From an uncultured Candidatus Saccharibacteria bacterium (GTDB lineage Bacteria > Patescibacteriota > Saccharimonadia > Saccharimonadales > JAGQNJ01): 64,000 bases of DNA. The position numbers and the translations under genes were made by a program. Below the pieces are notes generated by a model that searched no databases, had not been told where the DNA came from, and saw only the letters and a list, made by a program, of their open reading frames with translations. Location: contig CAYRSA010000001.1 of NCBI GenBank assembly GCA_964426845.1, forward strand, positions 107,237 through 171,236, written 5' to 3'. Positions 2,069-58,516 of this stretch are shown here, piece after piece (the first letter of the stretch is position 1; each line of letters starts with the position of its first letter).

Positions 2069-3496
2069 ATGAAAGTCCGAACCCGCTTTGCGCCCAGTCC
2101 AACCGGTTTTCTGCATGTCGGCGGCGTACGAACTGCACTTTTCGCATGGCTGCTGGCTCGTCAGAACGACGGTCAGTTTATCCTGCGCTTGGAAGACACT
2201 GATAAAAGCAGGGAAGTCGAAGGCAGTGGTAAGCACATCGAGGAGTCTCTACACTGGCTGGGTATTGATTGGGACGAAGGCCCGGACAAGGGTGGCCCCA
2301 AAGGCCCGTACAAGCAGAGTGAACGCCTGGACAGTTACCAGAAGTGGGCCAACAAACTAGTTGAGCAGGGCCGGGCCTACGCCGACCCCTACACTCCGGA
2401 TGAAGTTCAGAAATTCCGCGAACAAGCCCAAAAAGACAAAAAACCCTTCCTATACCGCCATCACCGTCCCGATAATCCGCCAGCGTGGGATGGCTCGACA
2501 CCATTAAGGTTTAAATCTGACCCCAAGAACTATAGCTGGCACGATGAGGTCATGGGCGACCTGTCGACCGGTCCAGAAGTTATCGACGACTTTATCCTGA
2601 TGAAATCTGACGGCTATCCAACTTATAACTTCGCTCATGTTGTTGACGATGCCGAGATGGAGATTACCCATGTCATCCGCGGCCAGGAATTCATCTCCTC
2701 GATGCCAAACTATCTGAACCTGTACGAAGCCCTGGACCTGACACCGCCGGTTCTAGCTACCGTCCCGCACATTCTTGGCGAGCAGGGCAATAAAAAGCTG
2801 GGCAAGCGCGATGGTGCTAAAGATATCCTGGACTACGACAAAGAGGGTTACTTACCAGAAGCCATGATGAGCTTCCTGGCCACACTTGGCTGGAATGACG
2901 GCACCGAGCAAGAGGTCTTCACCGAGAAAGAACTAATCGATAAGTTTTCCCTGGACAGAGTAGGGCATAGCGGCGCAAGATTTGACCCCAGACACTTGTT
3001 GTGGACCAACGGCCACTTTATTCGCCAACTAACCCTGAAAGAGCTGAGCAGCAAGGCGGAGGGCTTCTGGCCACCGGAAGCCGAAGACTATGACGACAAG
3101 TATCGCCAACAGGTACTAGGCCTAGTCCAAGAACGCCTAAAATACTTGGCCGAATTGCCGGACTTAACCTGGTTTTTCTTTACCGATGATCTGCCGGTCA
3201 ACCCCGACCTAATCAAGACACATAAGCAACTCAAGAAAATCGATCAAGCTGATCTGGCTGGCCTACTGCAAAAGTCTCAGGACGCCCTCAAGGACGCCGA
3301 GTTCCAGACCGAGACTCTGCAGGCTGTGCTTAACCAGTTATTAGAGGATACTGGCCAAAAACCAGCCGTACTATTTAGCCTAATCCGAATTGCCATTACC
3401 CAGGCGCCAGCTAGCCCCGGTTTAGCCGAAACCTTGGCCGTACTAGGCAAAGACAGATCGCTAAAGCGTATCCAAACCGCTTATGATACACTGTAG
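2069..3496 (+). CDS. gltX: Glutamate--tRNA ligase
   Basis: Carries the class I HIGH-type N-terminus RTRFAPSPTGFLHVGGVRTALF and a KLGKRDG (KMSKS-like) motif. The length is full and an AGAGG RBS precedes it. Confidence 0.97.
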   Translation: MKVRTRFAPSPTGFLHVGGVRTALFAWLLARQNDGQFILRLEDTDKSREVEGSGKHIEESLHWLGIDWDEGPDKGGPKGPYKQSERLDSYQKWANKLVEQGRAYADPYTPDEVQKFREQAQKDKKPFLYRHHRPDNPPAWDGSTPLRFKSDPKNYSWHDEVMGDLSTGPEVIDDFILMKSDGYPTYNFAHVVDDAEMEITHVIRGQEFISSMPNYLNLYEALDLTPPVLATVPHILGEQGNKKLGKRDGAKDILDYDKEGYLPEAMMSFLATLGWNDGTEQEVFTEKELIDKFSLDRVGHSGARFDPRHLLWTNGHFIRQLTLKELSSKAEGFWPPEAEDYDDKYRQQVLGLVQERLKYLAELPDLTWFFFTDDLPVNPDLIKTHKQLKKIDQADLAGLLQKSQDALKDAEFQTETLQAVLNQLLEDTGQKPAVLFSLIRIAITQAPASPGLAETLAVLGKDRSLKRIQTAYDTL

Positions 3497-3557
3497 GGTA
3501 TCGACAAGTTGACGCGCTAAAGCGCATCTATAAGTTAATCAAGCGAGAAAAATAATA

Positions 3558-4751
3558 ATGAACGAAGACAAACCCTCCGTACCTCACGTGTCCAATAATA
3601 ACCACGCCGAAAATGAGGCCAGTCGCCTGGCCGCCGAAGCCTTTAAGAAAGATAGCGAGAAACCCCTGCCACCAGGGGTAAAACCACCCAAGAAACCGCC
3701 GATTCACAAGCGTTTCGCCGCTTGGCATCGCAATCTAAGCAAGAAACAGAAGCTAATGCTGTTGCTTGCCGTCATATTATTGGTTGGCGCAGCTTGCTAT
3801 GCCACCTATCGAATCCTTGGCAACCAGGAGAAAGCCGCGAGCCAGGTCCAACAAGTCGCCCAACCAACCACTGTCCAGTCCAAGATGACCGGCCTGCAAG
3901 TTGCCCCAGAGATTAATACCAAACAAGTTACCGGGGTAATGATCGAGAACAGTCTTGACGCCCGACCTCAAGCTGGTCTTATTAATGCTGGTTTTGTCTT
4001 CGAAGCTATTGCCGAAGGCGGAATCACTAGATTCCTGGCTCTGTATCAAGATACTGGAGCTGATTACATTGGTCCTGTCCGAAGTGTCCGGCCCTACTAC
4101 CTGGACGTTGTAGCCAGCTTCGATGCAGCTATCGCCCATGTTGGTGGCAGCCCTGACGCCTTGGCTAAAATCAAGGCCATGAATATCAAAGACCTCGATC
4201 AGTTTGCTAATCCGGGTGCCTACGAACGCGTTAAGAACCGGGCCGCTCCACACAATGTCTATACTAGTAGCGCTAAGCTAGAAGCTTTAGAAGCTCAAAA
4301 GGGCTTTAATAAGTCCGAGTACACCGGCTTCGAGCATGCCAAAACCGAAGAAAAAGTGGCCACACCAACCGCCAAGACCATTAACCTCAACATTTCCTCG
4401 GCTCTGTACAACGTCAAATACGATTACAACCCCGCCACTAACAGCTATGATCGCTCGGTTGGCGGCGCTGCCCATACCGACGAGAAGTCGGGCAAACCAC
4501 TGTCGCCTAAGGCAGTTATCGCTGTCGAAACCTCGCGAAGTCAAAACGGCGTCTACTCGGTATATGGAATGACTGGTACCGGCAAGGTGACTATTTTCCA
4601 AAATGGTACCTCAATCGCTGGAACCTGGGAGCGACCCCAGGAGAGAAGCCAATACGTCTTCAAGGACGCTGCCGGAGCGGTCATTAAGGTCGTCCCGGGC
4701 CAGGCCTGGATGACACTGGTGACACCGGGTGGTGTGACGTTCACTCCGTAA
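3558..4751 (+). CDS. DUF3048 (YerB-like) domain membrane-anchored protein
   Basis: After an N-terminal TM helix it has VMIENSLDARPQAGLINAGFVFEAIAEGGITRFLALYQD...GPVRSVRPYY, the pattern I recognise from the DUF3048 family. Confidence 0.8.
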   Translation: MNEDKPSVPHVSNNNHAENEASRLAAEAFKKDSEKPLPPGVKPPKKPPIHKRFAAWHRNLSKKQKLMLLLAVILLVGAACYATYRILGNQEKAASQVQQVAQPTTVQSKMTGLQVAPEINTKQVTGVMIENSLDARPQAGLINAGFVFEAIAEGGITRFLALYQDTGADYIGPVRSVRPYYLDVVASFDAAIAHVGGSPDALAKIKAMNIKDLDQFANPGAYERVKNRAAPHNVYTSSAKLEALEAQKGFNKSEYTGFEHAKTEEKVATPTAKTINLNISSALYNVKYDYNPATNSYDRSVGGAAHTDEKSGKPLSPKAVIAVETSRSQNGVYSVYGMTGTGKVTIFQNGTSIAGTWERPQERSQYVFKDAAGAVIKVVPGQAWMTLVTPGGVTFTP

Positions 4752-6308: not shown

Positions 6309-6740
6309 GTGTCCGACGAACTATCTAAAGACCAATTGCCTAACGCCCCGATCACTCCGGCCACCCCGAAGTTTAAGAAGGTGCTATGCGTTGAGGACGA
6401 GCATTTTATCAGTGAGCTCTACACCCGGGCTTTACGCAAGGCTGGCTACGACGTAACCGTGGCTGCTGACGGCCAAGACGGCCTCGATAAAGCCAAGTCG
6501 GGCAACTTTGACATCGTTCTATTAGACATTATGCTGCCCAACCTGATTGGCACCGAAGTCTTAAATCAGCTTAAAAACCCGGCCCTGGGACTAAAAGCTA
6601 AAGTCATCGTCACCACTAATCTAGAGCAAAAAGAAGAGGCTCGGAAGGCTATCGAAAAACAGGCCGACGGCTACATCGTCAAAGCCGACGTCACACCGAA
6701 ACAACTGGTCGAATTCCTCCAGCACTTCGAAACCAGCTAA
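6309..6740 (+). CDS. Response regulator, receiver domain only
   Basis: GTG start with an AGGAG RBS, 3 nt after the kinase stop. It has VLCVEDE...DIVLLDIMLP...KADV, and at 143 aa there is no output domain. Confidence 0.9.
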   Translation: MSDELSKDQLPNAPITPATPKFKKVLCVEDEHFISELYTRALRKAGYDVTVAADGQDGLDKAKSGNFDIVLLDIMLPNLIGTEVLNQLKNPALGLKAKVIVTTNLEQKEEARKAIEKQADGYIVKADVTPKQLVEFLQHFETS

Positions 6741-6806: not shown

Positions 6807-7481
6807 GTGGGAATCGAATCTGGACCATCTATGGGAATGCTGATGAAAGCCGTCGATGAGGATGACTGGATGGGCTATACTGCCGCTGAACTAGAACATA
6901 CCCACGCACTTGCTAGTCTTTCAATACCTGAGGATTCGGCGATGGAGGAAGCTCTGGCTCGTGTTATTGAAGCCGACCCAGGAGGAGAAATCGTGGAGGA
7001 GTTAGTGTCCGAAGGCAAGTGGCTGATGGCCGCCAACCTCGGCAACGCCTCCAGGAATCCAGGGTCAAGTTACAGCCCAGTAGGACTGATGTACGCCGAA
7101 GGCGATAAGAGCAAGCCCGACACCCTAGAATTTTCAGTAGTGAGAATGGGAATATGGATAATGCCAGAGAGAGCCCGGGTATCAGCTAATGCTAGGATGA
7201 GCCATCAAGACAGGGTATCTGTCAGGTCGTTGCTTTATAACGGAGCTCTTAGGGAGTCCTCAGAAGTACACGATCCTGATGACATCATTGTTTCGCCTTC
7301 CACCGTAATAGTACCGCTCTTCGAAGGTGGGGATGGCGTACCGGTGCCGTTTAGATTCGTCAATCGAGAAGACTATCTGGCTCTGGCTGGCTTAAATGTC
7401 GCAAAACCGATTATCAGAGATTTGTCTCGGGTCTTAGTCAGCTATCATGGTGGCGAAGAGTCGTTTCAAGATACAATATAA
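6807..7481 (+). CDS. Hypothetical protein (first gene of a tight three-gene unit with umuD-like/umuC)
   Basis: GTG start with an AAGGAGG RBS. The stop lies 2 nt before the umuD-like start. I recognised no motif. Confidence 0.5.
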   Translation: MGIESGPSMGMLMKAVDEDDWMGYTAAELEHTHALASLSIPEDSAMEEALARVIEADPGGEIVEELVSEGKWLMAANLGNASRNPGSSYSPVGLMYAEGDKSKPDTLEFSVVRMGIWIMPERARVSANARMSHQDRVSVRSLLYNGALRESSEVHDPDDIIVSPSTVIVPLFEGGDGVPVPFRFVNREDYLALAGLNVAKPIIRDLSRVLVSYHGGEESFQDTI

Positions 7482-7483
7482 GG

Positions 7484-7834
7484 GTGAGCATTCATAAGAA
7501 CGACGAGAGCAAGGGCGTAACTACCAAGCGCGGATTTCCCAATCCATCGACTGACAGCACCATTATTTCGCTGGATATTACCGAACTATTGGTCAAACAC
7601 CCCTCCAGCACTTTCTACATGCGTATCACCGGTAATGACTGGCACGATTTAGGTATTTTCGAAGAGGACATCGCCGTAGTGGACAGAGCCTTAGAGCCCC
7701 GCAACTCTGACCTGGTTATATGGTGGGAGGATGACCAGTTTCGAATCAGCAAGCTCAAAGAAATACCAAAAGACACACCAGTCTGGGGCGTGGTAGCTTC
7801 GATTATTCACCGTTACCGGAATCTGTCGGCATGA
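7484..7834 (+). CDS. UmuD/LexA C-terminal (S24 peptidase-fold) protein with a degenerate active site
   Basis: GFPNPSTDS...LDITELLVKHPSSTFYMRITGNDW...DLVIWWEDDQFRISKL aligns by eye with E. coli UmuD residues 25-99. It overlaps the downstream Y-family polymerase gene by 4 nt. Confidence 0.75.
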   Translation: MSIHKNDESKGVTTKRGFPNPSTDSTIISLDITELLVKHPSSTFYMRITGNDWHDLGIFEEDIAVVDRALEPRNSDLVIWWEDDQFRISKLKEIPKDTPVWGVVASIIHRYRNLSA

Positions 7835-13319: not shown

Positions 13320-15125
13320 ATGCAACATGTAAAACCCAAATGGCTCCATACCTACAATTACTGTCTGGTGTTCTTAGATGTCGCCTTGTTTGTTGCTTAC
13401 TGGCTGTTTAGTTATCTAGATGTAAGCCAGGCCACCAGGGACTACTGGGGGATAACCTCGACAATCCTAATTATTGCCGCCGTCCATGCGGCCTACTCGC
13501 TATTAATATATCCTTTTGTACACAAGAAGAATGAATGGATGGCTTTTGCCATCGCCATGATGATATTCGGCACGCTATGGGCCGGTATCATCGAGACTAG
13601 CGGCAACACCAATTTGTGGTATCGAGCCGGATTCGCTGCCTTTGTATTCTTTTTGAACATGGTCGGTCCTTGGCTGGCGGTGGCAGCGGCCTCACTGGCC
13701 TGGATCCTCTTGGTATTCACGGTGATCGGCGTAACCCCCGGAAGTAACGCTACTAATCTGCAGAATGCCCTTATTGACATGCTTGTGACACTTTGCGTGG
13801 TTGGGGGATGGCTATTCTTTCGACGCTACTACGTCAAAAAACGCGATCATGAGACTATAGCTTTAGCTCATTTGCTAGAGCAAGAGCAGGTTAAGTCCAG
13901 TGTCGTGCTTGAAGCCATCACCGACGGAGTGGTGGTTGTCACCGTCAAAGGGACCGTCCAGATCATAAATGCCGCAGCCGCCAGCATGTTTGGCTGGACT
14001 AAAGATGAGGCTCAGCACGTTAACTACCAGTCACTATACAAGTTGGTTGATAACAGTGGCCAGCCAGTTGGCCCCGAACAAGCCACCAACGTCCAGGACG
14101 TTATAACTCTAACCCTGCAAACTGGCGAACCACACCAGGCAGTAGTCATGATAAGCACCCGCAATAATCGGCAGTTCTACGCCGATGTCGTGGCCTCGCC
14201 GATCAAGGGTCCGGCCACCACCAACGATCCGGGAGGCCAGCCGCCGCTAGTGGGTGTCATTGTGGTTTTCCGCGATGTCGACAAGCAGAAAAGGGAAGAG
14301 CAGCAGCGAACTGAATTTATCAGTACAGCCAGTCACGAGATGCGTACGCCAGTAGCCGCTATCGAAGGTTACTTGGCTCTAGCTATGAACGATAAAGTCT
14401 GCCTGATTGACGAGAAGGCTAGGGGCTACCTGGATAAAGCTCACTCTAGCACCCAGCATCTCGGCGAGCTATTTCAAGACTTATTAACCTCGGCTAAAGC
14501 CGACGATGGCCGCCTAGCCAGTCATCCCCAAGTCGTAGAATTCGGTAGCTACCTCGAGAAAATCGTCGATGACCTCCGCTTTGCCGCCGAGAAAAAAGGT
14601 CTGGCCCTAGAATACGTTATGGGCACCGATCAGGAGAGTATCTCAACCCGTACCAACTCCACCAAGATGATAAAACCCCTGTATTACGCCGAGGTTGACC
14701 CAGACAGGGTCCGCGAGGTGATCACTAATCTGTTCGACAACGCCGTCAAATATACGCCCTCTGGCAAGATTACAATTGGCCTAACCGGCAACCGTGACGT
14801 TGTTCAGTTCTACGTCAAAGACACTGGTGGCGGTATTGCCCCCGAAGATGTTCCGCATCTGTTTCAAAAGTTCTACCGTATCGATAACTCAGCTACTCGC
14901 ACCATCGGCGGCACCGGCCTGGGCCTATTCATTTGCCGAAAGATTGTCGAGCTTTACAAAGGTCGCATCTGGGTAAAAAGCCAATTAGGACAGGGCAGTA
15001 CCTTTTTTGTCAATTTCCCACGTTTAGATAATGCTCAAGCAGAGGCTGCCCGCCAACGCCTCCAGAGGACCACACAACCAGCCAAGCCTACTAATCCCAA
15101 ACCGTCGACAACCGTGGTACAATAA
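13320..15125 (+). CDS. Sensor histidine kinase (multi-TM N-terminus, PAS, HisKA, HATPase_c)
   Basis: It has the H-box ASHEMRTPVAAI, the N-box NLFDNAVKYT, and DTGGGIA and GGTGLGL. About 5 hydrophobic helices lie in the first 170 aa. Confidence 0.9.
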   Translation: MQHVKPKWLHTYNYCLVFLDVALFVAYWLFSYLDVSQATRDYWGITSTILIIAAVHAAYSLLIYPFVHKKNEWMAFAIAMMIFGTLWAGIIETSGNTNLWYRAGFAAFVFFLNMVGPWLAVAAASLAWILLVFTVIGVTPGSNATNLQNALIDMLVTLCVVGGWLFFRRYYVKKRDHETIALAHLLEQEQVKSSVVLEAITDGVVVVTVKGTVQIINAAAASMFGWTKDEAQHVNYQSLYKLVDNSGQPVGPEQATNVQDVITLTLQTGEPHQAVVMISTRNNRQFYADVVASPIKGPATTNDPGGQPPLVGVIVVFRDVDKQKREEQQRTEFISTASHEMRTPVAAIEGYLALAMNDKVCLIDEKARGYLDKAHSSTQHLGELFQDLLTSAKADDGRLASHPQVVEFGSYLEKIVDDLRFAAEKKGLALEYVMGTDQESISTRTNSTKMIKPLYYAEVDPDRVREVITNLFDNAVKYTPSGKITIGLTGNRDVVQFYVKDTGGGIAPEDVPHLFQKFYRIDNSATRTIGGTGLGLFICRKIVELYKGRIWVKSQLGQGSTFFVNFPRLDNAQAEAARQRLQRTTQPAKPTNPKPSTTVVQ

Positions 15126-15165: not shown

Positions 15166-16305
15166 ATGTCAAAAATCATGTTGGTCGAAGACGATAACTC
15201 CCTTAGAGAGATTTACGAAGCTCGCCTAGCAGCCGAGGGCTACACCGTAGTTTCAGCCAAAGACGGCGAGGAAGCCCTGGCTATGGCCCTAAAAGAGCAC
15301 CCCGACCTAATAATCGCTGATGTCATGATGCCTAAGGTTAGTGGCTTTGACATGCTGGATATTCTGCGCTCCACCCCTGAAACCAAAAACACCAAGATTA
15401 TTATGATGACCGCTCTGAGCCAAGCCGAGGACAAAGCCCGAGCCGAGAAACTGGGCGCTGACCGCTACCTAGTCAAATCTCAGGTAACCCTGGAGGACGT
15501 CACCCGCGAGGCCCGTGAAATCCTAAACGAATTAGACAGTCAAGCGGCCGCCACGGTTGCCAAAGTCTCTGGCGACCCGCCACCACCTGCCACACCAGCT
15601 GCGCCAGTTGTTCCGGCTGCACCTCTGCCACCGCCTCCAGAACCCCCAAAACCAGCACCGCCACCACCACCTCCAGCGCCCCCAGAACCCCCAAAACCAG
15701 CACCGCCACCGCCACCGCCACCGCCAAAACCAAAGCCCACACCTCCGCCGCCACCGCCAAGTGATCCGATAACACCAACTGTTACGACCATACCAGTGAC
15801 AGCTCCTGACGACGAGGCTGCCGCCATAACCGAGCCACCAAAAGATGACAATGCGGCCGTCGATGCCCAGCTGGAAGCAGCTGCCGAGGCTCTCAGTACT
15901 CCTGTAAAAAAAGAGGAGGCTGAGGTCAAAGAACAAGTTGATGATTTTATAGCCGCCAACCCGACCCTGTCGACAACCGCTGAGGCCGAGCCAAAGCCCA
16001 CTAATACTACGGCCTCGGATGCCGTTAACAGCTTGACCAAACCAGCCCAATCAGCCAACAAGCCCGAGGCTGAGACTGAAGAATCAGATCGGGCCTATGT
16101 AAGCACTGGTCAGAGCAAAGACGGGGACTCCTTGAAGCACACCAAAACCATAGAACCAACTCCTGATGCCGAGCGGGCCAAAGCCACACCCGACCTCAAT
16201 AAACTACTCGCGAAGGAAGGGGAAAGTATCGATGCCGAAACAGCACCGCCGGTTAATAGCGTGATCGCTCCCAACAACGGCAACGGGGCGCCGTCTACCG
16301 TCTAG
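15166..16305 (+). CDS. Response regulator receiver domain fused to a ~250-aa polyproline/Ala/Glu-rich tail
   Basis: The receiver region reads IMLVEDDNSLREIY...DLIIADVMMPKVSGFD...LVKSQV, preceded by an AGGAG RBS. Residues ~135-205 are nearly pure P/A/K/E. Confidence 0.85.
   Translation: MSKIMLVEDDNSLREIYEARLAAEGYTVVSAKDGEEALAMALKEHPDLIIADVMMPKVSGFDMLDILRSTPETKNTKIIMMTALSQAEDKARAEKLGADRYLVKSQVTLEDVTREAREILNELDSQAAATVAKVSGDPPPPATPAAPVVPAAPLPPPPEPPKPAPPPPPPAPPEPPKPAPPPPPPPPKPKPTPPPPPPSDPITPTVTTIPVTAPDDEAAAITEPPKDDNAAVDAQLEAAAEALSTPVKKEEAEVKEQVDDFIAANPTLSTTAEAEPKPTNTTASDAVNSLTKPAQSANKPEAETEESDRAYVSTGQSKDGDSLKHTKTIEPTPDAERAKATPDLNKLLAKEGESIDAETAPPVNSVIAPNNGNGAPSTV
15637..15726 (+). repeat. 2 x 45-nt tandem direct repeat encoding PEPPKPAPPPPPP
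   Basis: The 29-nt core CCAGAACCCCCAAAACCAGCACCGCCACC occurs identically at 15637 and at 15682. Confidence 0.8.
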
Positions 16306-17018: not shown

Positions 17019-18335
17019 GTGAGTAGCAAAACTAAAGTACCGATCATAGCTATTGTCGGCCGGGCCAATGTGGGCAAGTCCAGTCTTTTTAATAATGTTC
17101 TAGGCCGGCGCGAGACCATCGTGGCCGACGAACCTGGCACCACCCGTGACAGTATTTACGGTCGGGCTCATTGGGAAGGCTATGACTTCTGGGTTGTTGA
17201 CACCGCTGGCATGAAAGACCCCAAAGACGACTTTGAATTTACAATTCAAGAACAAATTAGCCAAGCCACCGAAAGCGCCGATATCATCTGGGTGGTCATC
17301 GAAGCTGATGTCGGTATTACCGATGACGACCGTCGCTTGGCTAAGCAAGCCCTCAAGAGCAAAAAGCCGGTCTTCTTAGTAGTCAACAAAGCTGACAAAG
17401 CCTATAAGGCCACCGAGGCCGATTACCAGCGACTAGGCGTCAAAGACATCTTTATGACCTCAGCCACCCAAAACCGGGGCATTCCGGCTATGTTGGATGA
17501 GCTGGTCAACCTCATACCTAAAACCGCCATTCCTGTCGATCAAGATCGTATCACTATCGCGCTCCTGGGCCGCCCCAATGTTGGCAAATCTTATCTGTTT
17601 AACACCTTGGCTAAGAAACAACAGGCCATCGTGGCCGATCGGGCTGGCACCACCCGTGACATTAACCGCTTGACCGTCCGTCACAAGCAAAAAGAGATCG
17701 AGATCCTGGACACCGCCGGTATCCGCCGCAGCGGCAAGATCGAGCGGGGCATCGAGAAGTTCAGCGTTATTAGGTCATTATCAGCCATCGAGCAAGCCGA
17801 TGTCTGCTTACTACTAATGGACGCTAACGAGCTCAACGTGGCCCTGGACCAAAAAATCGCCGGCATGATCAAAGAGGCTGGCAAGGGCCTGATCCTAGTA
17901 GTCAGCAAGTGGGACTCGGTCGACAAAGATGCCTACACCCGAGATAGCCTAGCTCCTAGCATCCAGCGCGAATTCATCTTCGTTCCCTGGGCACCACTGA
18001 TATTTACTAGCTCGGTCACTGGCCAAAACGTCACCAAGTTGTTTGATCTGGCTCAGGACATCGTCAACGCTCGCTCAACACTGATTAAAACACCTGTTCT
18101 AAACCGCTGGCTTCACCAGATTACTGACGAGCACCCGCCGGCCGGACTCAAAAATAAAACACCGAAATTAAATTACATGATTCAAGAGGGCGACAACCCG
18201 ACCAACTTCAAAGTCTATGGCAAAGACACCAAGTTCCTGCATTGGAGTTACAAAAGGTTTATGGAGCGACGCCTTAGAGAAGAATTTGGCTTCGAAGGTA
18301 CGCCAGTCCGTTTCTGGTTCTTCGACAAAAAATAA
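17019..18335 (+). CDS. der: Ribosome-associated GTPase Der (EngA)
   Basis: Two tandem G domains (GRANVGKSSLFN and GRPNVGKSYLFN, each followed by DTAG and NKxD-type motifs) precede a KH-like C-terminus. The start is GTG. Confidence 0.95.
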   Translation: MSSKTKVPIIAIVGRANVGKSSLFNNVLGRRETIVADEPGTTRDSIYGRAHWEGYDFWVVDTAGMKDPKDDFEFTIQEQISQATESADIIWVVIEADVGITDDDRRLAKQALKSKKPVFLVVNKADKAYKATEADYQRLGVKDIFMTSATQNRGIPAMLDELVNLIPKTAIPVDQDRITIALLGRPNVGKSYLFNTLAKKQQAIVADRAGTTRDINRLTVRHKQKEIEILDTAGIRRSGKIERGIEKFSVIRSLSAIEQADVCLLLMDANELNVALDQKIAGMIKEAGKGLILVVSKWDSVDKDAYTRDSLAPSIQREFIFVPWAPLIFTSSVTGQNVTKLFDLAQDIVNARSTLIKTPVLNRWLHQITDEHPPAGLKNKTPKLNYMIQEGDNPTNFKVYGKDTKFLHWSYKRFMERRLREEFGFEGTPVRFWFFDKK

Positions 18336-27638: not shown

Positions 27639-28553
27639 CTACTTATAATAAGCTCGCTCATCGACTCGAACGTCAACATACTCGGCTGGGGTCACCTTCT
27701 TCCCTTCTAGATGCTTGTTGAGAGCTAAATAGGTGCCGACTTGCTGCAAGGCATCCCCTGTAGTCGTAAACTTAACGTAATAGGGCTTACCCTCGATAAA
27801 CACTAAGATTTCACTGGCCCGAGGTGGCAACTCCATACGCGAGACTTTCAAGCCCTTTAGGGCCAATTGGTCGCGAATGGTTTGTATAAATCGAATATCG
27901 TGCCCAGTTAGGACCTGACTGCCCGGCTGGATAGCCAGCTGGGCCGAGTCCTTAACCGGAATCAGAGCCAAAGCCCCCAGGTCGGCCACCTGATCAGCAT
28001 TAATTAGCGCCCTGCCCTGCTCATCAATTACAAATTTGGACGGTCCGCTTTCCAGCAACAGAACTGGCTCGGCCACCTGAACGTAAACAACAGGAGTCCG
28101 ACTAATGATAGGCAGGACCACTGCTACGTTGGTAATTTCCGAGAATTGTTCTTGGAGGCTACGTTCAATATCGCTGGTATCTAGGGTCAGCTTGTTGCGG
28201 GTTAGCACCGACTGCTCCATAAGCTTCTGAGCCGCCTCCTGATACTCACTTTCTGGCCTCAAAATGGCTTTACTAGCGGCATTTTGATCATTAACCATAC
28301 TTACCCGCGGGCGGGGCGATAGCGTTAGGGCCCACAATACGCTAATCAGTATTAGCAAGCCGGCAATCAGCGTCGGCAGGTGGCGCAAGCGAGCTCTAAC
28401 AGAGGCGAAAAACGACGGCTTGTCTCGCGATTGGCTGGCGTCGAACTCCGTATCCCGGTTTTGATAATAGGAAAAAACCGCCTTGTTCTTGGAAGGCTGA
28501 GCGGCCGTGGTCCGGCGCCCTTCCGGGGCCGATGATTTTTTCTTTCTAAACAT
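27639..28553 (-). CDS. ftsQ: Cell division protein FtsQ/DivIB-like (TM + POTRA)
   Basis: It sits directly after murG in the dcw cluster. It has a basic N-terminus, one TM helix, and a POTRA-like segment (KLTLDTSDIERSLQEQFSEITNVAVV). Confidence 0.75.
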   Translation of the reverse strand: MFRKKKSSAPEGRRTTAAQPSKNKAVFSYYQNRDTEFDASQSRDKPSFFASVRARLRHLPTLIAGLLILISVLWALTLSPRPRVSMVNDQNAASKAILRPESEYQEAAQKLMEQSVLTRNKLTLDTSDIERSLQEQFSEITNVAVVLPIISRTPVVYVQVAEPVLLLESGPSKFVIDEQGRALINADQVADLGALALIPVKDSAQLAIQPGSQVLTGHDIRFIQTIRDQLALKGLKVSRMELPPRASEILVFIEGKPYYVKFTTTGDALQQVGTYLALNKHLEGKKVTPAEYVDVRVDERAYYK

Positions 28554-41340: not shown

Positions 41341-44300
41341 CTATGTTAGGACTGTGCGAACAATGTAGTCGCGCCGAGCCTTAAGGGTAGCCTTCAGCTG
41401 GTCGCGGTCGGCCTTGGGCCTTCGGATGCTATCAACCATCTGGTCTATAGCTGCATCGGTCATCTTGGTTCGTAAGTCTTGGGCCTGAGCTCTTACCTCT
41501 TCATCTGTCAGCCCTGGATACTTCTGGCGCATGCCTAGGCCGAGCCGCTCATCATTATCGCCCACCCGCAACTCCAGGACTTCATCATTCCAAACATCGC
41601 CCGACTTGCGCTGGCCCTGAGCCCGCAAGTCCAGGGCACCGCCGTTGTCGGCTCGGTAAACAATACCGTCAACTTCTAGGGTGTTGCCTGCGTTATAAAC
41701 CACATCCCAGTTGGCAAGCCAGGCATCAACCACAAATCCACCATTAAGGGTTGTCACCTCTCGAGAAGGTGGACTATCAGTGGTTTCGTCCACCCACTCC
41801 GAATCGTGTCCAATACGTCCCTCGACCGTCACCATCCGAGTTCGTGGTGTAGTGACACCCATTCGCTCATAAATAGTATCGGCTAAGTACTCCGTCCAGA
41901 TGTGGTCGGTTGTGCTGACTGCCACCTCTCCCTCATCTACCTGGGCAGTTCGGAGGCCACCAAACTTAATATAGTGTTTCTGTGGTCGACCAGTCTCGGT
42001 TGGTAGAAGATAGACTGAACCCTCGTTGCTGCCAAGCTGCTCGTCTGTACGTAGGGTACTATCAATGGTTGTTGGCACCTGGATAACCATATTTCGGTCG
42101 CCGTACACTGCATCGAACTCAGCCGGGGTTACAAGCAAGTTACCATCCAAATCGTAAATTGGTATATATACACCGTTCTGGATGGTGGCTTCCAGAGCAC
42201 TATTAATCGTGTGCTCGTTGGCATCTCGCAGTATAACCCCAGTTATTTCCGTAGACGGTATGCCACCTAGAATTAATCCATGGCGATTAACTCTATCTGA
42301 ACTGGTTGGATTGCTGGTCTGTCCGGCCATCCAGCTATTGTCATCTCGGGCATACACCAATATGACTCCGTCTGATCCGCCATAGCTATAACCAGCGCCG
42401 GTAATTGTTTCCTCTACCTGGCTTCGTGTGTCTGGGCCATATTGGATAATTGAAACATCGACATTAAATGGAAAGGCGTCTTCTTTTGATGCAACCGATC
42501 TAGACTCGCCTGCAAAGTTACCGTCCTGAAGCACCATTAGCAAAGCGTCAAGTGGTGCACCGTGAATGAAGTCGCCTTCAGTAAATACCGGCGTGTCCCC
42601 GTGTACCCTCTCTCGATTGCGGTGCGAAGCCACCATTTTCTGAGCCGGATCTCGGCTTCGGCGCAAAGTCTCGGAAATCATATAGCCATATATTTGCTTA
42701 CGAACCTCGGGATTAAACTGTTGAAAAGTAAACGAGTCGACTTCCATAATTTGGTCACCAAGCTCAGCAATGGCCTCCGGCGTCAAAAGTGCTTTTCTTT
42801 CGGCCTCGGTCATGTCGGCGATGTCTTTAACACTAAAGCCCTCAACAGCATCTAAGAAGCCGTTACCATTTCTGAGTTGATCAGGCTTTAGGCGAATCTT
42901 TGGCAAGAACTTGATGGTGTGATTATTCTGGCTATGTTCAACTTTTAGGCCGTGGACGACTTCTGAGATAGAATAAATATTCTTCCAGTATTCGCGCGGA
43001 TGACTAAATATGGCCGAAACTTCAGCTACCTTGGCGTTGAATTCTTCAACCAAGCCAACAGTTACCAACATATCGATAATCCGGTCTGCAATAACTTGGT
43101 TGGCCACCAACATACCTAAGTCCTCGCTTTTAAGTACGGCTTCGGCAAAGGCTGGTGCTTCATCTGGATGCTCAATGGCTATTCTAAAACCAAGCTTAGT
43201 AAACCGCGGGTCCTCTAGCATTTGTACAAATGACGGATTGTCAAAAGCTTCTAGAGCAGCTTGGATAGTTTCAGCATTTTTATCAGATAGTTGCTTAAGT
43301 ACGTTGGCCCTCTGGGACTCATCGTCGATCAGTAACTTGATAGCCTCGTGCTCGAATAGACTAATCAAGGCCTTTGTCTTTTCCGGCCTATGTTTGTCGT
43401 ACATAACATATCTATAGATATCCGGATTTTCCAAAAGCGTTTCTACTACCCTTGGACTCGACAACAGCTCAACGTTTTTCAGCAAATGGTAGGGTGTCAT
43501 CACAAAGTCATGACTGACCAATTTTCGGGTTTCCGGATTGGAAAGCAGATCTGCAAGAACTGGATTAGTCAAAACAGCCACAGCGAAATCATCTTTTGAT
43601 CCGTGGTACGAGGCCTCTTCAATCATACGAAGCATGTCGGGATCGGCCATCATGTCTTCCAGGCTATCGGCATTAGCCAGAACTCTGTCAGCGTAAGCCT
43701 CCGGATCGTACTTGGAGAACACTGTATTCTGATGCAGAAATATAGAGCTAACGTTAGGGTGGTCATTAAGCTCCGCAATACGCTCAATCAGCTGCTGACG
43801 ACGAGCTTCAATGTCTTGGCCTATATCAGCCAGCACCTCGCCAGTGTCAAACGGCTCGTGCCTGCCCCTGTCTTGTATTCTTCGGGCAGCATTTGTTATA
43901 GCGCCGTATCCATCGTCCGATATCTCTCCATCTCGCACCGTAAGCAGCTGTTGAGCTAGTCGCTTATCACCCCGGGACCATAATGACACTATTAATTCAT
44001 CGGCAAAATAAGAAGCTTCGAATCGGTTTTCTCCACCTACCATTCGCTTTTGCCGGATAAGGCGTAGTAAATCATCGTACTTGCCTTCCCTAAATCCTGG
44101 ATCAATGTCAATCATTGCCAGCAGGCTTTCTCGGTCGACGTCTATACTACCAAACGTGCTGTGCCAGCGCTCGGGAACCAAAACCGCTCGACTGATGGCC
44201 TCTTGCTTGTCCTGGTCTGTTTCCAGATCCAGGGACTTAGCTACAGCGGCTTTCTCAGGTACTGGCAACTTTTCCATCTGAGCTTGCCATTCCTCTGGCG

Positions 44301-44973
44301 CTAGTGACGTCCTTGCCCCTTCGTTGTCAAAATCAATTTTCTGACCAATTGCCACCTGTAGAAGACCTCGGTGCTCAGCGATAGTTGCCTCAACTGGATA
44401 ATACTGTTTGCTAATTATGCCCATGTCTTCATCATCCTTGATCGTAACCAGCCCACGGCTAGCCACCTGGGCATTAACAAGCTCCTCAGCCAAGCCGTTA
44501 CCAACGGCAGCTTCGACTACCCTATCAACTTCGTCTGGCTTCAATCTGGAATCGTCGTATTCACTGTTTCCTGCCGCAATACTAATGACCACCAGTAGAT
44601 CTTCGGCACTACGTTGGGCTGTCTCGGCGTCATTGGCCTTCTTGGCTTCAACCGCTCTTTCACTTAAAATAGTGGCTGCTCTCAGCCAGACCGCTCCAGC
44701 CGGTGGCTCCTCAGTTGTCTGGTTTTCAGATGCAACCTGCTCATGGGCAACCAGAGTCACTTCAGCCAACCGGGCCATATGACCCTGAACTCGTTCGCTG
44801 TCACCAACAAACTCAGGGGTAAAACCATCCTGCCTTCTCTCCTGAGGATTTTCGATATGCTCCAGCGCTGCCAAGTTAGTTTGCAGGTGTTCTTGAACTG
44901 CCTGATGGCCAATCTGATCAATCTGCTGTTGAACCTCGGGCGGTATACTAGTGCCGGCTTCTTGGGTTTCCAT
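41341..44973 (-). CDS. 1210-aa multidomain protein: helical N-terminus, LRV-like helical repeats, unknown central domain, C-terminal atypical kinase-like domain
   Basis: This is a single uninterrupted ORF with no signal peptide or TM helix. It has recurring L.NP....... helical repeats (LTNPVLADLLSNPETRKLV, LLENPDIYRYV, FDNPSFVQMLEDPRF). The last 232 aa carry ordered kinase-like motifs (see findings). Confidence 0.8.
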   Translation of the reverse strand: METQEAGTSIPPEVQQQIDQIGHQAVQEHLQTNLAALEHIENPQERRQDGFTPEFVGDSERVQGHMARLAEVTLVAHEQVASENQTTEEPPAGAVWLRAATILSERAVEAKKANDAETAQRSAEDLLVVISIAAGNSEYDDSRLKPDEVDRVVEAAVGNGLAEELVNAQVASRGLVTIKDDEDMGIISKQYYPVEATIAEHRGLLQVAIGQKIDFDNEGARTSLAPEEWQAQMEKLPVPEKAAVAKSLDLETDQDKQEAISRAVLVPERWHSTFGSIDVDRESLLAMIDIDPGFREGKYDDLLRLIRQKRMVGGENRFEASYFADELIVSLWSRGDKRLAQQLLTVRDGEISDDGYGAITNAARRIQDRGRHEPFDTGEVLADIGQDIEARRQQLIERIAELNDHPNVSSIFLHQNTVFSKYDPEAYADRVLANADSLEDMMADPDMLRMIEEASYHGSKDDFAVAVLTNPVLADLLSNPETRKLVSHDFVMTPYHLLKNVELLSSPRVVETLLENPDIYRYVMYDKHRPEKTKALISLFEHEAIKLLIDDESQRANVLKQLSDKNAETIQAALEAFDNPSFVQMLEDPRFTKLGFRIAIEHPDEAPAFAEAVLKSEDLGMLVANQVIADRIIDMLVTVGLVEEFNAKVAEVSAIFSHPREYWKNIYSISEVVHGLKVEHSQNNHTIKFLPKIRLKPDQLRNGNGFLDAVEGFSVKDIADMTEAERKALLTPEAIAELGDQIMEVDSFTFQQFNPEVRKQIYGYMISETLRRSRDPAQKMVASHRNRERVHGDTPVFTEGDFIHGAPLDALLMVLQDGNFAGESRSVASKEDAFPFNVDVSIIQYGPDTRSQVEETITGAGYSYGGSDGVILVYARDDNSWMAGQTSNPTSSDRVNRHGLILGGIPSTEITGVILRDANEHTINSALEATIQNGVYIPIYDLDGNLLVTPAEFDAVYGDRNMVIQVPTTIDSTLRTDEQLGSNEGSVYLLPTETGRPQKHYIKFGGLRTAQVDEGEVAVSTTDHIWTEYLADTIYERMGVTTPRTRMVTVEGRIGHDSEWVDETTDSPPSREVTTLNGGFVVDAWLANWDVVYNAGNTLEVDGIVYRADNGGALDLRAQGQRKSGDVWNDEVLELRVGDNDERLGLGMRQKYPGLTDEEVRAQAQDLRTKMTDAAIDQMVDSIRRPKADRDQLKATLKARRDYIVRTVLT

Positions 44974-55001: not shown

Positions 55002-55274
55002 ATGTCACACGTCAAAGCTGGCGGAACCAGTAAAAATAACCGCGACTCCCAAGGTCAACGCCTTGGTGTTAAGCTCTTTGGCGGCCAATCTGTCAAAGAA
55101 GGCCAAGTAATTGTGCGCCAAGTCGGCATGAACAAGCGCCCTGGACCAGGCACCTTTATCTCTCGTAATTTCACTATTCACGCTGCCAAAGATGGCACCG
55201 TCAATTACCGACAGCGCAAAGTCCGCCGTTTCACCGGCAAAACCACAATGCGCACCGAAGTCTCAGTCGACTAG
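55002..55274 (+). CDS. rpmA: 50S ribosomal protein L27
   Basis: MSHVKAGGTSKNNRDSQGQRLGVKLFGGQ...IVRQ is the L27 signature. Confidence 0.93.
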   Translation: MSHVKAGGTSKNNRDSQGQRLGVKLFGGQSVKEGQVIVRQVGMNKRPGPGTFISRNFTIHAAKDGTVNYRQRKVRRFTGKTTMRTEVSVD

Positions 55275-55291
55275 TTTATCACTGTAAACTA

Positions 55292-55320
55292 TTGCTTTTT
55301 TGATGTTTATATAGTATAAT
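55292..55320 (+). promoter_or_regulatory. Sigma70-type promoter positioned for a leaderless transcript of the 68-aa ORF
   Basis: TTGCTT (55292-55297), a 17-nt spacer, then TATAAT (55315-55320). The ATG at 55327 is 6 nt downstream, with no SD. Confidence 0.55.
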
Positions 55321-55326
55321 GGATGT

Positions 55327-55533
55327 ATGGTAGATTTATTTGAATTTGATCACACAGCAAGTCAAGATCAACCAAGTGTTGAACACTTGATTGCAGAAGA
55401 GTCCGTATCCATTAATTGGTTAAGTGACTCTATCGAGGCTGATCCGGTTGCATCCACCGTTGCAGTCGCTGGCCTGTGCTTGGGTGCTGTCGCTGCAGTC
55501 GTGGTTGGCCGAAGAAAATCCCAGTCTCGATAG
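55327..55533 (+). CDS. Small acidic protein with a C-terminal hydrophobic anchor and basic tail
   Basis: 68 aa ending in VAVAGLCLGAVAAVVVGRRKSQSR. The region is AT-rich and a consensus promoter abuts the start. Confidence 0.45.
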   Translation: MVDLFEFDHTASQDQPSVEHLIAEESVSINWLSDSIEADPVASTVAVAGLCLGAVAAVVVGRRKSQSR

Positions 55534-55536
55534 TTA

Positions 55537-55611
55537 TTAGCTCATACTAAGAAGGTGCTTGATTTACTTAATCACATCAGCGATCACCACTTGTGACTTG
55601 ACCATGTAGTC
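55537..55611 (-). pseudogene. Degenerate copy of the 3' end of the receiver gene at 56494-56877
   Basis: 58 of 75 nt match 56494-56568, with the first 12 identical. The minus strand reads DYMVKSQVVIADVIK, a stop, then IKHLLSMS and a stop. Confidence 0.75.
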
Positions 55612-55676
55612 GCCAGCGCAAAGTCCGCCGATTCACTGGCAAAACTACCATGCGCACCGAAGTCTCAGTCGACTAA
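55611..55676 (+). pseudogene. Duplicated 3' end of rpmA
   Basis: 60 of 66 nt match 55209-55274, including the stop codon position (TAG in rpmA, TAA in the copy). It is fused directly to the receiver-gene fragment. Confidence 0.8.
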
Positions 55677-55686
55677 AAGATCTTGG

Positions 55687-56487
55687 CTAACTTGTTGGAG
55701 CACCAATAAACAGTTCCGTATTTGGCTGTGGGTAAAAGTTCGTTCCATTACCGGAACGATCTTCGATGTCTACCCCTATTCGTCGGCCGGATTCTTCAAC
55801 ATGAAGCCGCATAGCTAGGTGCTGGCGAGATAACCCCATATCAGCCGTTTCAGAAATTGGCTTATCATCCAGCAGCTTACTACGACCGATTACCGTTGTT
55901 CCACCTTCTGCGATAGTCATACTAAATCGACTTATGAGATCCTCATCCCCAAGCTCGGCCACCGCCCGCTGAGTCGACGGATCGGCATCGATTTTTGCGA
56001 AGCCCAAATAGCCATTAAAGCCATCCCGGGCAACCTCTAGCTCGGTCAGGTTGGTCACTCTGAGATAATTTACTTCACTGTTGGGGGCTCTTTCAGTGGT
56101 TACTTTAAGCACGGTGTACTGACCGGCAGTAATGTAAGCGAGCGTCGCCCCAGGAGAACCATCAAGTCCCAAGTGAGCATAGATGCCAATGTGACGATCA
56201 AGATGGGGCTTACGTTGACCCCTGCCCGTTGGGAAAGCAGCCTGCTCACTAAGTCCGTGCTTTTCTCTTAATTCTGCAGCTTTGTTGGTTAGCTTTTCTG
56301 TGTCTCTTAAAGCATTGTTTGCCGCGGCTAGGGCGCGACCTTTGAGTTCAGCATAATCTTGGGTGTGTCCATCATTATTATCGACAAGTTTTCTGGCCGC
56401 CTCTACAGTCGCCTCTTCAAGATCTCTACTGCTCGTGGATCCATCTTGATCATCTGCAGAGCTGGGTGGGTGCTGCTCCTTTGTCAT
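55687..56487 (-). CDS. FHA-domain protein with an unknown N-terminal region
   Basis: The C-terminus TTVIGRSKLL...GLSRQHLAMRL...DIEDRSGNGTNF follows the FHA pattern G-R...S-R-x-H...S-x-N-G-T. Confidence 0.75.
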   Translation of the reverse strand: MTKEQHPPSSADDQDGSTSSRDLEEATVEAARKLVDNNDGHTQDYAELKGRALAAANNALRDTEKLTNKAAELREKHGLSEQAAFPTGRGQRKPHLDRHIGIYAHLGLDGSPGATLAYITAGQYTVLKVTTERAPNSEVNYLRVTNLTELEVARDGFNGYLGFAKIDADPSTQRAVAELGDEDLISRFSMTIAEGGTTVIGRSKLLDDKPISETADMGLSRQHLAMRLHVEESGRRIGVDIEDRSGNGTNFYPQPNTELFIGAPTS

Positions 56488-56493
56488 GTCAGA

Positions 56494-56877
56494 TTAGCTC
56501 ATACTGAGGTGGTGTTTGATGCGCTCGACGACGTCGGCGATTACCACTTGAGATTTAACCATGTAGTCATCGGCGCCGAGTTTCTCGGCTTTTTCTTTAT
56601 CAGATTCTTGTGACAGAGCCGTCAGCATAACGACTTTGACATTAGCAGTTTCGGGCGTATTGCGTAAGATATCCAAGACATCAAAGCCGCTGACTTTAGG
56701 CATCATGACATCCAGAACAATTAGGTCCGGTTTGAACTCTATAGCTGCCGCTAGGGCGTCTTCCCCGTTGGGCACCCGACGGACTGAAAAGCCCTCGGTT
56801 TCCAGGCGCATTTTATAAACATTGGCCAAGCCGTCGTCATCTTCAACAAGCAGTATTTTTTTCTGTGGTTCGCTCAT
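56494..56877 (-). CDS. Response regulator, receiver domain only (paralog of the receiver part of 15166-16305)
   Basis: ILLVEDDDGLANVY...DLIVLDVMMPKVSGFDVLDILRNTPET...GADDYMVKSQV in 127 aa. Confidence 0.9.
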   Translation of the reverse strand: MSEPQKKILLVEDDDGLANVYKMRLETEGFSVRRVPNGEDALAAAIEFKPDLIVLDVMMPKVSGFDVLDILRNTPETANVKVVMLTALSQESDKEKAEKLGADDYMVKSQVVIADVVERIKHHLSMS

Positions 56878-56896: not shown

Positions 56897-58516
56897 TTAT
56901 TTTCGCTTAGTCTTCAAGTGTTTAACAAAGCCGTCAAACAGCGGATGCGGCCGATTTGGTCGAGACTTGAACTCTGGGTGAAATTGGCTAGCAATAAAGA
57001 ACGGGTGGTTCTGGCCTTCTATAACCTCCACCAGGTTACCGTCTGGCGATTGACCGCTGACCCTTAGGCCCCAAGCCTCATAACGATCACGGTAATTATT
57101 ATTGCATTCATAACGGTGCCGATGACGCTCATTTATTTCCTTAGCTTTATAGAGCCTGGAGGCCAAGCTGCCCTTGGCCAATACACACGGATAGTCGCCT
57201 AGACGCATTGTGCCACCGGTATTTTCTTTGCCCTTTTGATCGCTCATGGTGTGAATAACCGGGTCTTGAGGAGCGGCGTCCAGTTCGACAGAGTTGGCCC
57301 CGCTGAGACCACCGTTGCGAGCCGCCGCCACGACCGCCACCTGAAGGCCCAGGCACAGCCCCAAGTAAGGCATTTTGTTCTTCAAGGCATAACGGGCGGC
57401 AATAATCTTGCCTTCTACACCTCTTGTTCCGAAGCCACCCGGCACCACAATGCCGTCGACATCGCGCAAAACTTTCAGAGCCTGTTTGTCGCCGGCCTCC
57501 AGTTCGGTGGCTTCAATCCACTTAATCTTAACCTTAGTGTTATTCCAACTGCCGGCTGCGTACAAAGCTTCGAAAACCGACATGTAAGTATCGGTATTAT
57601 CCATATACTTGGCGACCACTCCGACGGTTACTGTTCGGTCGTAATCGGTCGTAGCCCGACGAACGACATCACGCCAGGACTTAAGATCTGGCCGCTTGCC
57701 TTTTAGCCCTAATCGGTTAGTCAAAACATTAGCGATGCCAGTATCTTCTAGGGTCAGGGGTACTTGATAAATACTGCTAGCGTTGGGCAGCAGAGCTATG
57801 GCTTCAGGCGCCACACCGGAAAACAGACTTAACTTTTCTTTGACCTTGGGATTAGCCGGGTCTTCACTGCGAGCTACCAAAATGTCTGGGCTGATACCCA
57901 AGCCTCTTAGTTCCCTGACCGAGTTTTGAGCCGGCTTGGTCTTTGTCTCTTGGCTAGCGCCTAGAAACGGCAAATAGACCACGTGGACATAAGCGCAGTT
58001 TTCACGACCGACAGCAATTCCAAGTTCGCGGATAGCTTCGATGAAACTCAGGGACTCGTAGTCGCCAACCGTGCCGCCAATTTCCACAATGTGGACATCG
58101 TAGCCTTCGGCTGCCTGCTGAATAAAGTTTTGAATGGCCCCTGTAAAGTGCGGGATGATCTGGACGTCATCGCCTTCGTACTTGCCAGCCCGCTCGTCGT
58201 TAATAACCTTGAGTAAAACCCGGCCGCTCATCAGCGAACTACTCGACACCAACTCTTGATCTAGGAAACGTTCGTAATGACCTAGGTCCAAATCGGTCTC
58301 GGCGCCGTCTTTAGTAACAAAGCACTCGCCGTGCTCCCTAGGATTAAGCATGCCAGCGTCAACGTTCAAGTAAGGGTCGCACTTTTGGATGTTGACCTTG
58401 AGTCCGCGGGCCTTAAGTAGATTTCCAATGGAGGCGGCGGTGATGCCCTTACCGAGTCCTGATAAGACTCCGCCTGTCACAAAAATATACTTAGTTCGCC
58501 GCTTGGTTAGCGCCAC
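56897..58516 (-). CDS. pyrG: CTP synthase
   Basis: It has the N-terminus KYIFVTGGVLSGLGKGITAASIG and the glutaminase motifs GLCLGLQ and HRHRYE. Confidence 0.97.
   Translation of the reverse strand: MALTKRRTKYIFVTGGVLSGLGKGITAASIGNLLKARGLKVNIQKCDPYLNVDAGMLNPREHGECFVTKDGAETDLDLGHYERFLDQELVSSSSLMSGRVLLKVINDERAGKYEGDDVQIIPHFTGAIQNFIQQAAEGYDVHIVEIGGTVGDYESLSFIEAIRELGIAVGRENCAYVHVVYLPFLGASQETKTKPAQNSVRELRGLGISPDILVARSEDPANPKVKEKLSLFSGVAPEAIALLPNASSIYQVPLTLEDTGIANVLTNRLGLKGKRPDLKSWRDVVRRATTDYDRTVTVGVVAKYMDNTDTYMSVFEALYAAGSWNNTKVKIKWIEATELEAGDKQALKVLRDVDGIVVPGGFGTRGVEGKIIAARYALKNKMPYLGLCLGLQVAVVAAARNGGLSGANSVELDAAPQDPVIHTMSDQKGKENTGGTMRLGDYPCVLAKGSLASRLYKAKEINERHRHRYECNNNYRDRYEAWGLRVSGQSPDGNLVEVIEGQNHPFFIASQFHPEFKSRPNRPHPLFDGFVKHLKTKRK

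Follow-up and report, generated by a model that had tools for sequence, protein, structure and literature searches.

How does the gap between two neighbouring genes come to contain, fused to each other, a second copy of the tail of each of them? The question is posed by a locus in a 64,000-nucleotide (nt) stretch of an uncultured Candidatus Saccharibacteria bacterium (contig CAYRSA010000001.1, positions 107,237 to 171,236), here called the window, in which rpmA, the gene for ribosomal protein L27, and the gene for a stand-alone CheY-like receiver on the opposite strand are separated by two cargo segments with such a scar between them. Here, I suggest that the structure likely stems from one illegitimate head-to-tail join between two spacer haplotypes at a replacement-type variable site, probably during natural transformation. 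The parts of the locus, in coordinates of the window, are as follows.

55002-55274, plus strand: rpmA (ribosomal protein L27, 90 amino acids (aa); Pfam PF01016, E 2.4e-23)
55209-55274, plus strand: repeat A, the final 66 nt of rpmA
55292-55320, plus strand: promoter-like element of a small open reading frame (ORF), read from the sequence
55327-55533, plus strand: S1 cargo, the small ORF of 68 aa, no family
55537-55611, minus strand: B', a dead copy of the receiver-gene 3' end (75 nt), with an in-frame stop
55611, no strand: the B'/A' head-to-tail join, placed by alignment of A/A' and B/B' around it
55611-55676, plus strand: A', a dead copy of the final 66 nt of an rpmA allele
55687-56487, minus strand: S2 cargo, an ORF of 266 aa, no family
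56494-56877, minus strand: stand-alone CheY-like receiver, 127 aa (Pfam PF00072, E 6.4e-24)
56494-56568, minus strand: repeat B, the final 75 nt of the receiver gene
56897-58516, minus strand: pyrG (CTP synthase; Pfam PF06418, E 1e-108), the conserved right flank of the variable site

On the plus strand the order is rpmA (A), S1 (262 nt), B'/A', S2 (817 nt) and B (receiver). The original prediction, made from the sequence alone, had described this order with B' fused to A', and had given 60 of 66 identical positions for A/A' and 58 of 75 for B/B', the latter with an in-frame stop; recomputed alignments return the same values (55209-55274 against 55611-55676, and 56494-56568 against 55537-55611) and the same order, and an independent repeat search recovers the same two pairs, A over 65 nt at 92% and B over 89 nt at 75% (55536-55624 and 56493-56581). 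The window holds just four families of direct repeats of at least 40 nt, the A and B pairs being the longest, and chance matches are therefore excluded. The two repeat pairs are interleaved, with their inner members fused head to tail, which is the topology of a duplication or circle junction, as had been proposed; S1 and S2 are unrelated, as had also been claimed, no similarity being found between them at the DNA or protein level.

The inner copies are readily recognised as gene ends. Translated on the minus strand, B' gives DYMVKSQVVIADVIK*IKHLLSMS* (asterisks denote stop codons), and A' gives RQRKVRRFTGKTTMRTEVSVD*, the same amino acids as the end of L27, closed by TAA where A has TAG. B' starts exactly at its stop codon, 3 nt past the stop of the small ORF, and the stop of the 266-aa gene lies 10 nt from that of A'. 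The two copies overlap by a single base, the C at 55611 (a strict microhomology of 1 nt), beside which lies a 10-nt patch where the parental sequences match at six positions, including GCGC at 55616-55619. Judged by these alignments, the join is an illegitimate one, with microhomology of 1-4 nt. There is no sign that the scar has a function of its own: it contains no ORF of at least 40 aa and no Rfam match, and its folding z-scores of 0.07 and -0.44 are no better than those of shuffled sequence, so that a structured RNA or a terminator was set aside.

The same arrangement of rpmA, 68-aa ORF, 266-aa gene and receiver, with identical spacing, was found by exact-protein look-ups in contigs of seven sequencing runs (SRR14932608, SRR21517852, SRR21517853, SRR21517854, SRR21517857, SRR29748399 and SRR34985379). 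These contigs match the window at 99.4-100% over the matched stretches, and contigs with the stacked haplotype vary at just two positions between 55244 and 56610. Read off the alignments by eye, the longest block of identity runs to 26 nt in the A/A' pair and to 13 nt in the B/B' pair. Loss of the structure through repeat-mediated deletion should be rare, and a deletion between B' and B would also carry the premature stop into the receiver; rare deletion at such a cost fits the invariance of the structure across samples.

Do the two halves of the stack exist on their own? For S2, the answer is found in the distribution of the 266-aa protein. Among billions of proteins it has two detectable relatives, P0002 (48%) and P0011 (28%), from two other lineages. 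The gene for each is the only one in the gap from the receiver to an intact rpmA, and its stop codon either adjoins or overlaps that of rpmA, a geometry shared with A'-S2-B in the window. An S2-only haplotype therefore exists for this family. Of the two single-cassette haplotypes which the original prediction had proposed to look for, then, the S2-only form occurs in two lineages and the S1-only form was not found (see below).

The site is variable well beyond these two forms. The best genome matches of the receiver are metagenome-assembled genomes (MAGs) of Saccharibacteria, at 73-84% identity, and four out of five of them keep the order pyrG, receiver, spacer, rpmA, methyltransferase; the spacers are some 1.55, 3.15 and 0.8 kb and roughly 10 nt long, with mutually unrelated cargo, including in one of them (L001) a genuine FHA and PP2C protein of 471 aa. 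Closer to the window stands a cluster of contigs defined by their L27, whose identity is 98.9-100% at the loci for which it was measured and no lower than 90% at any. Among these, the contigs with an identical L27 include those of haplotype II, found in at least eight samples, which reads rpmA (forward), a 274-aa membrane protein (reverse), ORFs of 31 aa and 66 aa (both forward), a 185-aa gene (reverse) and the receiver (reverse). Its flanks are 99.3% and 98.3% identical to those of the window; similarity ends at the rpmA stop (55273) and restarts at 56500. Other spacer states in the cluster are these.

191-aa gene only: L095, L106-L109
82/83-aa gene only: L102, L105, L110
185-aa gene only: L112
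274-aa gene only: L099/L100, the same as L103/L104
empty: L111 (13 nt between the stops) and L113 (stops overlapping)

The spacer is empty in L005 as well. Close relatives carry three or more unrelated alleles plus an empty state between the same flanking genes, and the variable spacer postulated beforehand is borne out by empty, 82/83-aa, 185-aa, 191-aa, 274-aa and compound states; single-cassette variants do occur, and the relatives do not all share one identical arrangement. Compared in this way, the rpmA-receiver gap is, in this Saccharibacteria species group, a small, highly multi-allelic replacement-type variable site, bounded by both stop codons. In most non-empty states the receiver is directly followed, in the same orientation, by a further gene. 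No copies of the flanking gene ends are present in six other haplotypes (the haplotype II, 191-aa, 274-aa, L001, L003 and L004 spacers).

The way in which the gene-end copies have diverged indicates where they had been before. A and A' differ at five coding positions, each time synonymously (P 0.0012 under unconstrained, neutral change); B and B' differ at 17 positions, 12 of them at codon position 3, and 9 of the 13 changed codons are synonymous (P 0.002), the remaining four being non-synonymous, CGC to TAA included. Because the changes are mainly synonymous, the inner copies diverged while in working genes, and they are fossils of another lineage's functional alleles, not the outcome of decay in situ after a duplication. 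Variant bases of A' are present in the functional rpmA of the related lineages L111-L113, and the divergence of A' is within the sampled range. The outer copies, which lie within intact genes, are species-typical: A is identical to haplotype II over 63 coding nt, and the body of B differs from it at 3 of 63 positions. An argument previously drawn from the unequal divergence of the two pairs (91% versus 77%) is weak, as receiver 3' ends often differ more than rpmA 3' ends among the sampled lineages (e.g. 10 versus 4); the discriminating evidence is rather the synonymous pattern, which holds for all changes in A' and for most in B'.

Two further ideas were set aside. B' does not come from the paralogous receiver-domain gene at 15166-16305, for it encodes the sequence of the orthologue. 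Within the receiver, contigs of the stacked haplotype differ among themselves in an 11-SNP (single-nucleotide polymorphism) tract at 56611-56662. The tract is a mosaic with alleles of other lineages and suggests a short stretch of homologous recombination; an import of S2 together with a diverged 170-nt receiver tract was dropped, given that polymorphism.

How might the stack have been built? Strains carry at this site no cassette or one of several unrelated cassettes, with ends exactly at the two stop codons. The haplotype of the window would stack two versions of the spacer, namely rpmA, small ORF and receiver end, followed by rpmA end, 266-aa gene and receiver. A single illegitimate join would link the two, its breakpoints lying 75 nt into the receiver gene and 66 nt into rpmA as counted from their 3' ends; it would be in effect an unequal crossover between two haplotypes, and the remainder would have been integrated through homologous recombination in the conserved flanks. 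The inner ends B' and A' would derive from functional alleles of a diverged lineage and would now be dead. Candidate routes are homology-facilitated illegitimate recombination (HFIR) in the course of transformation, the uptake of DNA carrying the join point of a duplication or circle, and the insertion, in the manner of Campbell, of a fragment that had been circularised. What is inferred is the recombination mechanism, its route by DNA uptake and the order of events; either parent may have been the recipient, and the join may have formed in this species or have been imported already stacked. The idea that two alternative alleles have been stacked, put forward in the original prediction, is supported for S2 by the S2-only relatives and by the multi-allelic site, and for S1, whose single-cassette haplotype is missing from the searches, by inference only.

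Several observations weigh against a direct join of two haplotypes. First, no S1-only haplotype (rpmA, small ORF, receiver) was found in the protein collection searched with the small ORF and with a two-sequence profile, nor in the Joint Genome Institute (JGI) metagenome contigs scanned, nor in any context of the 66-aa homologue of the small ORF; the single JGI hit to the small ORF, on L101, was discarded as a chance match. In haplotype II, moreover, the small-ORF module stands beside a receiver-linked gene without any scar. Second, the source lineage of A' and B' was not matched among all fetched rpmA and receiver 3' ends. The 63-nt body of B' differs from every sampled receiver at 13-18 positions, while sampled receivers differ among themselves at 1-11 of 63, and B' has non-synonymous changes where A' has none; the inner copies may not be of one shared history. 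Third, B and B' share, despite their differing bodies, an identical stretch of 13 nt, ATTAGCTCATACT, that is, the final 12 nt of the receiver gene and the base past its stop. Among the copies compared, B' shares this terminus (TTAGCTCATACT, encoding ..SMS*) with B only; other close haplotypes have GGCATGCAGTAG-like ends (..GMQ*, as in haplotype II, ..GME* or ..GM*). The empty-site contig L113 ends in ..GMS*, which is similar, so an ..SMS*-like terminus is a natural allele. It is possible that both parents came from an ..SMS* lineage, the body of B having been overwritten later by homologous recombination, or that a short gene conversion took place between B' and B; in either case the shared terminus needs an extra assumption, a common lineage or gene conversion. 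Finally, the strict microhomology of 1 nt is below the 3-10 bp quoted for HFIR, and no competence gene is present among the window ORFs of at least 300 aa, the genome having had no search aimed at competence genes.

The shared terminus is what an alternative history would explain, namely a tandem duplication in situ (A-S-B'/A'-S-B), followed by replacement of one cargo and by homologous recombination with other strains, which overwrote the outer ends. A head-to-tail join is the product expected of microhomology-mediated tandem duplication, such a history would also account for diverged inner copies next to a species-typical A and B body, and short recombination tracts do occur in the receiver. 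Nevertheless, S1 and S2 are dissimilar, so that a second exact replacement would be needed, with arms of just 66-75 nt on one side; the duplicated cassette is absent from the relatives examined, and more events are required than by a direct join of two haplotypes. I regard this history as unlikely.

More doubtful still is a templated insertion, in which the small ORF already lay next to the 266-aa gene and a template switch, of the kind known as microhomology-mediated break-induced replication (MMBIR) or fork stalling and template switching (FoSTeS), inserted two short gene-end copies between them. Haplotype II does have a small ORF and a receiver-linked gene as convergent, scar-free neighbours, no S1-only haplotype was found in the collections searched, and the join has just 1-4 nt of microhomology. 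The outer ends of the 140-nt block, however, fall precisely on the stop codons that close the copied genes, where all haplotypes break, and A' abuts the 266-aa gene as intact rpmA does in the S2-only relatives; random template switches are not expected to hit stop-codon boundaries. The copies differ, in addition, by 9% and 23%, mostly at synonymous sites, and both resident alleles would have had to be replaced later.

Elements that integrate into gene ends typically leave direct repeats of the gene 3' end, and A/A' and B'/B are such repeats; a site-specific integrative element (attachment-site, or att-type, repeats) is very improbable all the same, for there are two interleaved pairs fused at one join instead of one flanking pair, the repeats are diverged, the 402- and 957-nt intervals hold no integrase, recombinase or transposase gene, and other haplotypes have no repeats. 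Least credible of all is an assembly chimera that joined reads of two co-occurring strains near 55611, which the original prediction had asked to exclude: although the short contigs L086-L088 and L098 break at the rpmA stop (55244-55273), contigs of seven runs cross 55611 with the same sequence, so the arrangement is not an assembly artefact, and the exact blocks (A/A' and B/B') are shorter than an assumed assembler word size of 31.

The contig breaks are of some interest in their own right. L086, L087, L088 and L098, all short-read contigs, have an end no more than 30 nt from the rpmA stop codon, which suggests a branch of the de Bruijn graph there and the co-occurrence of strains with different spacers in those samples. 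With such branching of the assembly graph in several samples, the locus would tend to fragment or mis-join metagenome bins.

What do the cassettes of the window encode? The 68-aa product of S1 is acidic (isoelectric point 4.45) and carries a C-terminal membrane helix (residues 42-60), followed by a basic tail. It has a single relative, the 66-aa ORF of haplotype II (55% identity, E 5e-23), in which the acidic N-terminal part is kept along with the membrane helix and the tail; the ratio of non-synonymous to synonymous substitution rates (dN/dS) between the two is 0.38. In the protein-collection searches, members of this family came only from this species, and the 68-aa protein belongs to no family in Pfam, NCBIfam or PADLOC. 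With such conservation, the small ORF is a real gene and a portable module. The original prediction credited it with a consensus promoter; its -10 element, TATAAT (55315-55320), is indeed consensus, but the -35 element, TTGCTT, 17 nt away, is poor (3 of 6), and a consensus promoter scan did not flag the element. Both hexamers and their spacing are kept in haplotype II, where the N-terminal coding region is less well conserved. Since the -10 ends 6 nt ahead of the ATG, a distance which is also kept in haplotype II, a leaderless mRNA is plausible.

The 266-aa gene of S2 starts 6 nt past the receiver stop in the same orientation, and the two look like one transcription unit. Its product had been labelled an FHA protein, a label that is not supported, no FHA domain being detectable by Pfam, PDB sequence, fold or hhalign comparison. 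There is no Pfam match even at E of 10 or below, and none in NCBIfam or PADLOC; the sequence search of the PDB returned no FHA, the sole matches below E 0.001 being a designed helical protein. Two AlphaFold runs reached a predicted local distance difference test (pLDDT) score of 38 and 65; the better model, built from three sequences (pLDDT 64.7, predicted template modelling (pTM) score 0.67), has a best Foldseek match in the PDB of E 0.3. When aligned by hhalign to a true FHA neighbour, the GR, SRxH and NGT motifs do align, yet at E 0.013 and a probability of 3%. An FHA (PF00498) identity was therefore set aside as unsupported, as it amounts to a GR...SRxH...NGT resemblance. The 185-aa and 191-aa alleles of the site have weak FHA matches (E 0.03 and 0.1), and the receiver-linked genes may share a distant, though unproven, FHA relationship. 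A defence or known-family identity of the cargo was likewise dropped, as the cargo proteins have no PADLOC or NCBIfam match.

Some further observations concern the relatives. The 66-aa ORF of haplotype II has, in its 3' end, GTCGACTA (L090, 4975-4998), directly against the stop of the 185-aa gene, and in L112 the rpmA end GTCGACTAG (585-600) abuts the 185-aa gene likewise; the former may, on this weak resemblance, be an rpmA remnant of 5-8 nt. In L003, an AT-rich repeat of 84 nt (6629-6712 and 7451-7534, 73% identity) lies upstream of two consecutive spacer cargo genes and may be a duplicated promoter region. In L105, a gene with a faint Fic-domain match (3064-3846) stands downstream of pyrG, where other loci have a PDZ/S41 peptidase, a position that may mark another variable site close by.

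Overall, the window is a piece of ordinary core chromosome, with the dcw (cell-division and cell-wall) cluster, tRNA synthetases, topoisomerase I and two histidine kinases. Its large ORFs include no mobility gene, and the spacer contains no integrase, transposase, recombinase or other mobility gene, its only ORFs being those of 68 and 266 aa. A histidine kinase gene at 13320-15125 is followed by one for a 379-aa protein (to 16305), whose N-terminal receiver domain is closely paralogous to the receiver at 56494-56877 and whose C-terminal half is a long proline-rich tail, itself the repeat family at 15613-15735. The 127-aa receiver is accordingly an orphan stand-alone paralogue. A 42-nt repeat of 83% identity (17113-17154 and 17623-17664) lies within a 438-aa ORF (17019-18335) which resembles, by eye, a Der/EngA-type GTPase; its copies encode the similar peptides TIVADEPGTTRDS and AIVADRAGTTRDI and look like an ancient internal domain duplication. 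ORFs of 1210 aa (41341-44973) and 304 aa (27639-28553) have no Pfam match at E of 1e-5 or below.

Saccharibacteria are an episymbiotic phylum, in which natural competence has been shown only recently, in culture. If the direct join of two haplotypes is right, the locus is a clean natural footprint of inter-strain illegitimate recombination in these bacteria. The more interesting lead, however, is the hypervariable receiver-linked cassette site itself, a very small site with at least seven states among close relatives and an orphan gene directly downstream of the receiver in most non-empty ones; as such, it is a candidate for strain-specific signalling or host interaction. A bolder and rather improbable extension is that the gap is a dedicated cassette-exchange site, with a receiver and fast-swapping partners under diversifying selection (e.g. 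from host or phage interaction), and that the stacked form is a two-state intermediate. RecA-mediated deletion at the direct repeats would then resolve the stack into either single-cassette form, and the stacked haplotype would be a population-level switch instead of a dead scar.

Against which known systems should the locus be placed? Replacement-type flexible genomic islands are multi-allelic cassettes between core genes, for instance O-antigen or capsule loci. The present site resembles them in that the same core flanks surround unrelated cargo in close strains, homology stops exactly at gene ends, mobility genes are missing, and recombination in the flanks has left mosaic tracts in the receiver. 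It differs from them in its tiny size (0-3 kb, 0-3 genes), in the presence of two alleles at once, and in its cargo, orphan proteins associated with a stand-alone receiver instead of genes for glycan synthesis.

As for the stacking, tandem duplication and circle integration both predict interleaved repeats fused head to tail, as observed, but here the units are not copies of each other. Campbell-type integration of a circular molecule would give exactly A-S1-B'/A'-S2-B, with the B'/A' join as the point of closure; there is, however, no sign of a circular intermediate, replicon or recombinase, and circularisation itself would still need an illegitimate join. Transformation can yield tandem structures in which two alleles are retained next to each other (PMC3784515). 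In the pneumococcal merodiploids, an intact copy is accompanied by a cassette-disrupted one, and unequal crossing-over has been proposed as their origin (PMC3784515). The novel head-to-tail join and the two different alleles side by side are common to both cases; the pneumococcal duplications, however, span 100-900 kb and arise by homologous pairing of long repeats derived from insertion sequences (IS), whereas the present case has a unit of about 1 kb, an illegitimate join and a structure that has become fixed in a natural lineage.

A further parallel is HFIR, known with joints of 3-10 bp in Acinetobacter baylyi, Streptococcus pneumoniae and Pseudomonas stutzeri (PMC6382021). As in HFIR, one side appears anchored in conserved sequence and the other joined illegitimately at a very short GC-rich microhomology, with foreign DNA added beside resident DNA; a diverged donor and a homologous anchor are both apparent, A' and B' being 9% and 23% off the resident alleles and the flanks 98-99% identical to haplotype II. 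The host phylum, too, is naturally competent, transformation via ComEC having been shown experimentally in cultivated Saccharibacteria (PMC10633639). The differences are that the microhomology is 1 nt when counted strictly (4 nt with GCGC), that donor and recipient are alleles of one locus, so that the product resembles a duplication, and that the event, itself unobserved, is known from its footprint alone. To sum up, the locus is a new example of known processes, illegitimate recombination and replacement-type variable sites, and not a new kind of system, nor does it establish a new mechanism.

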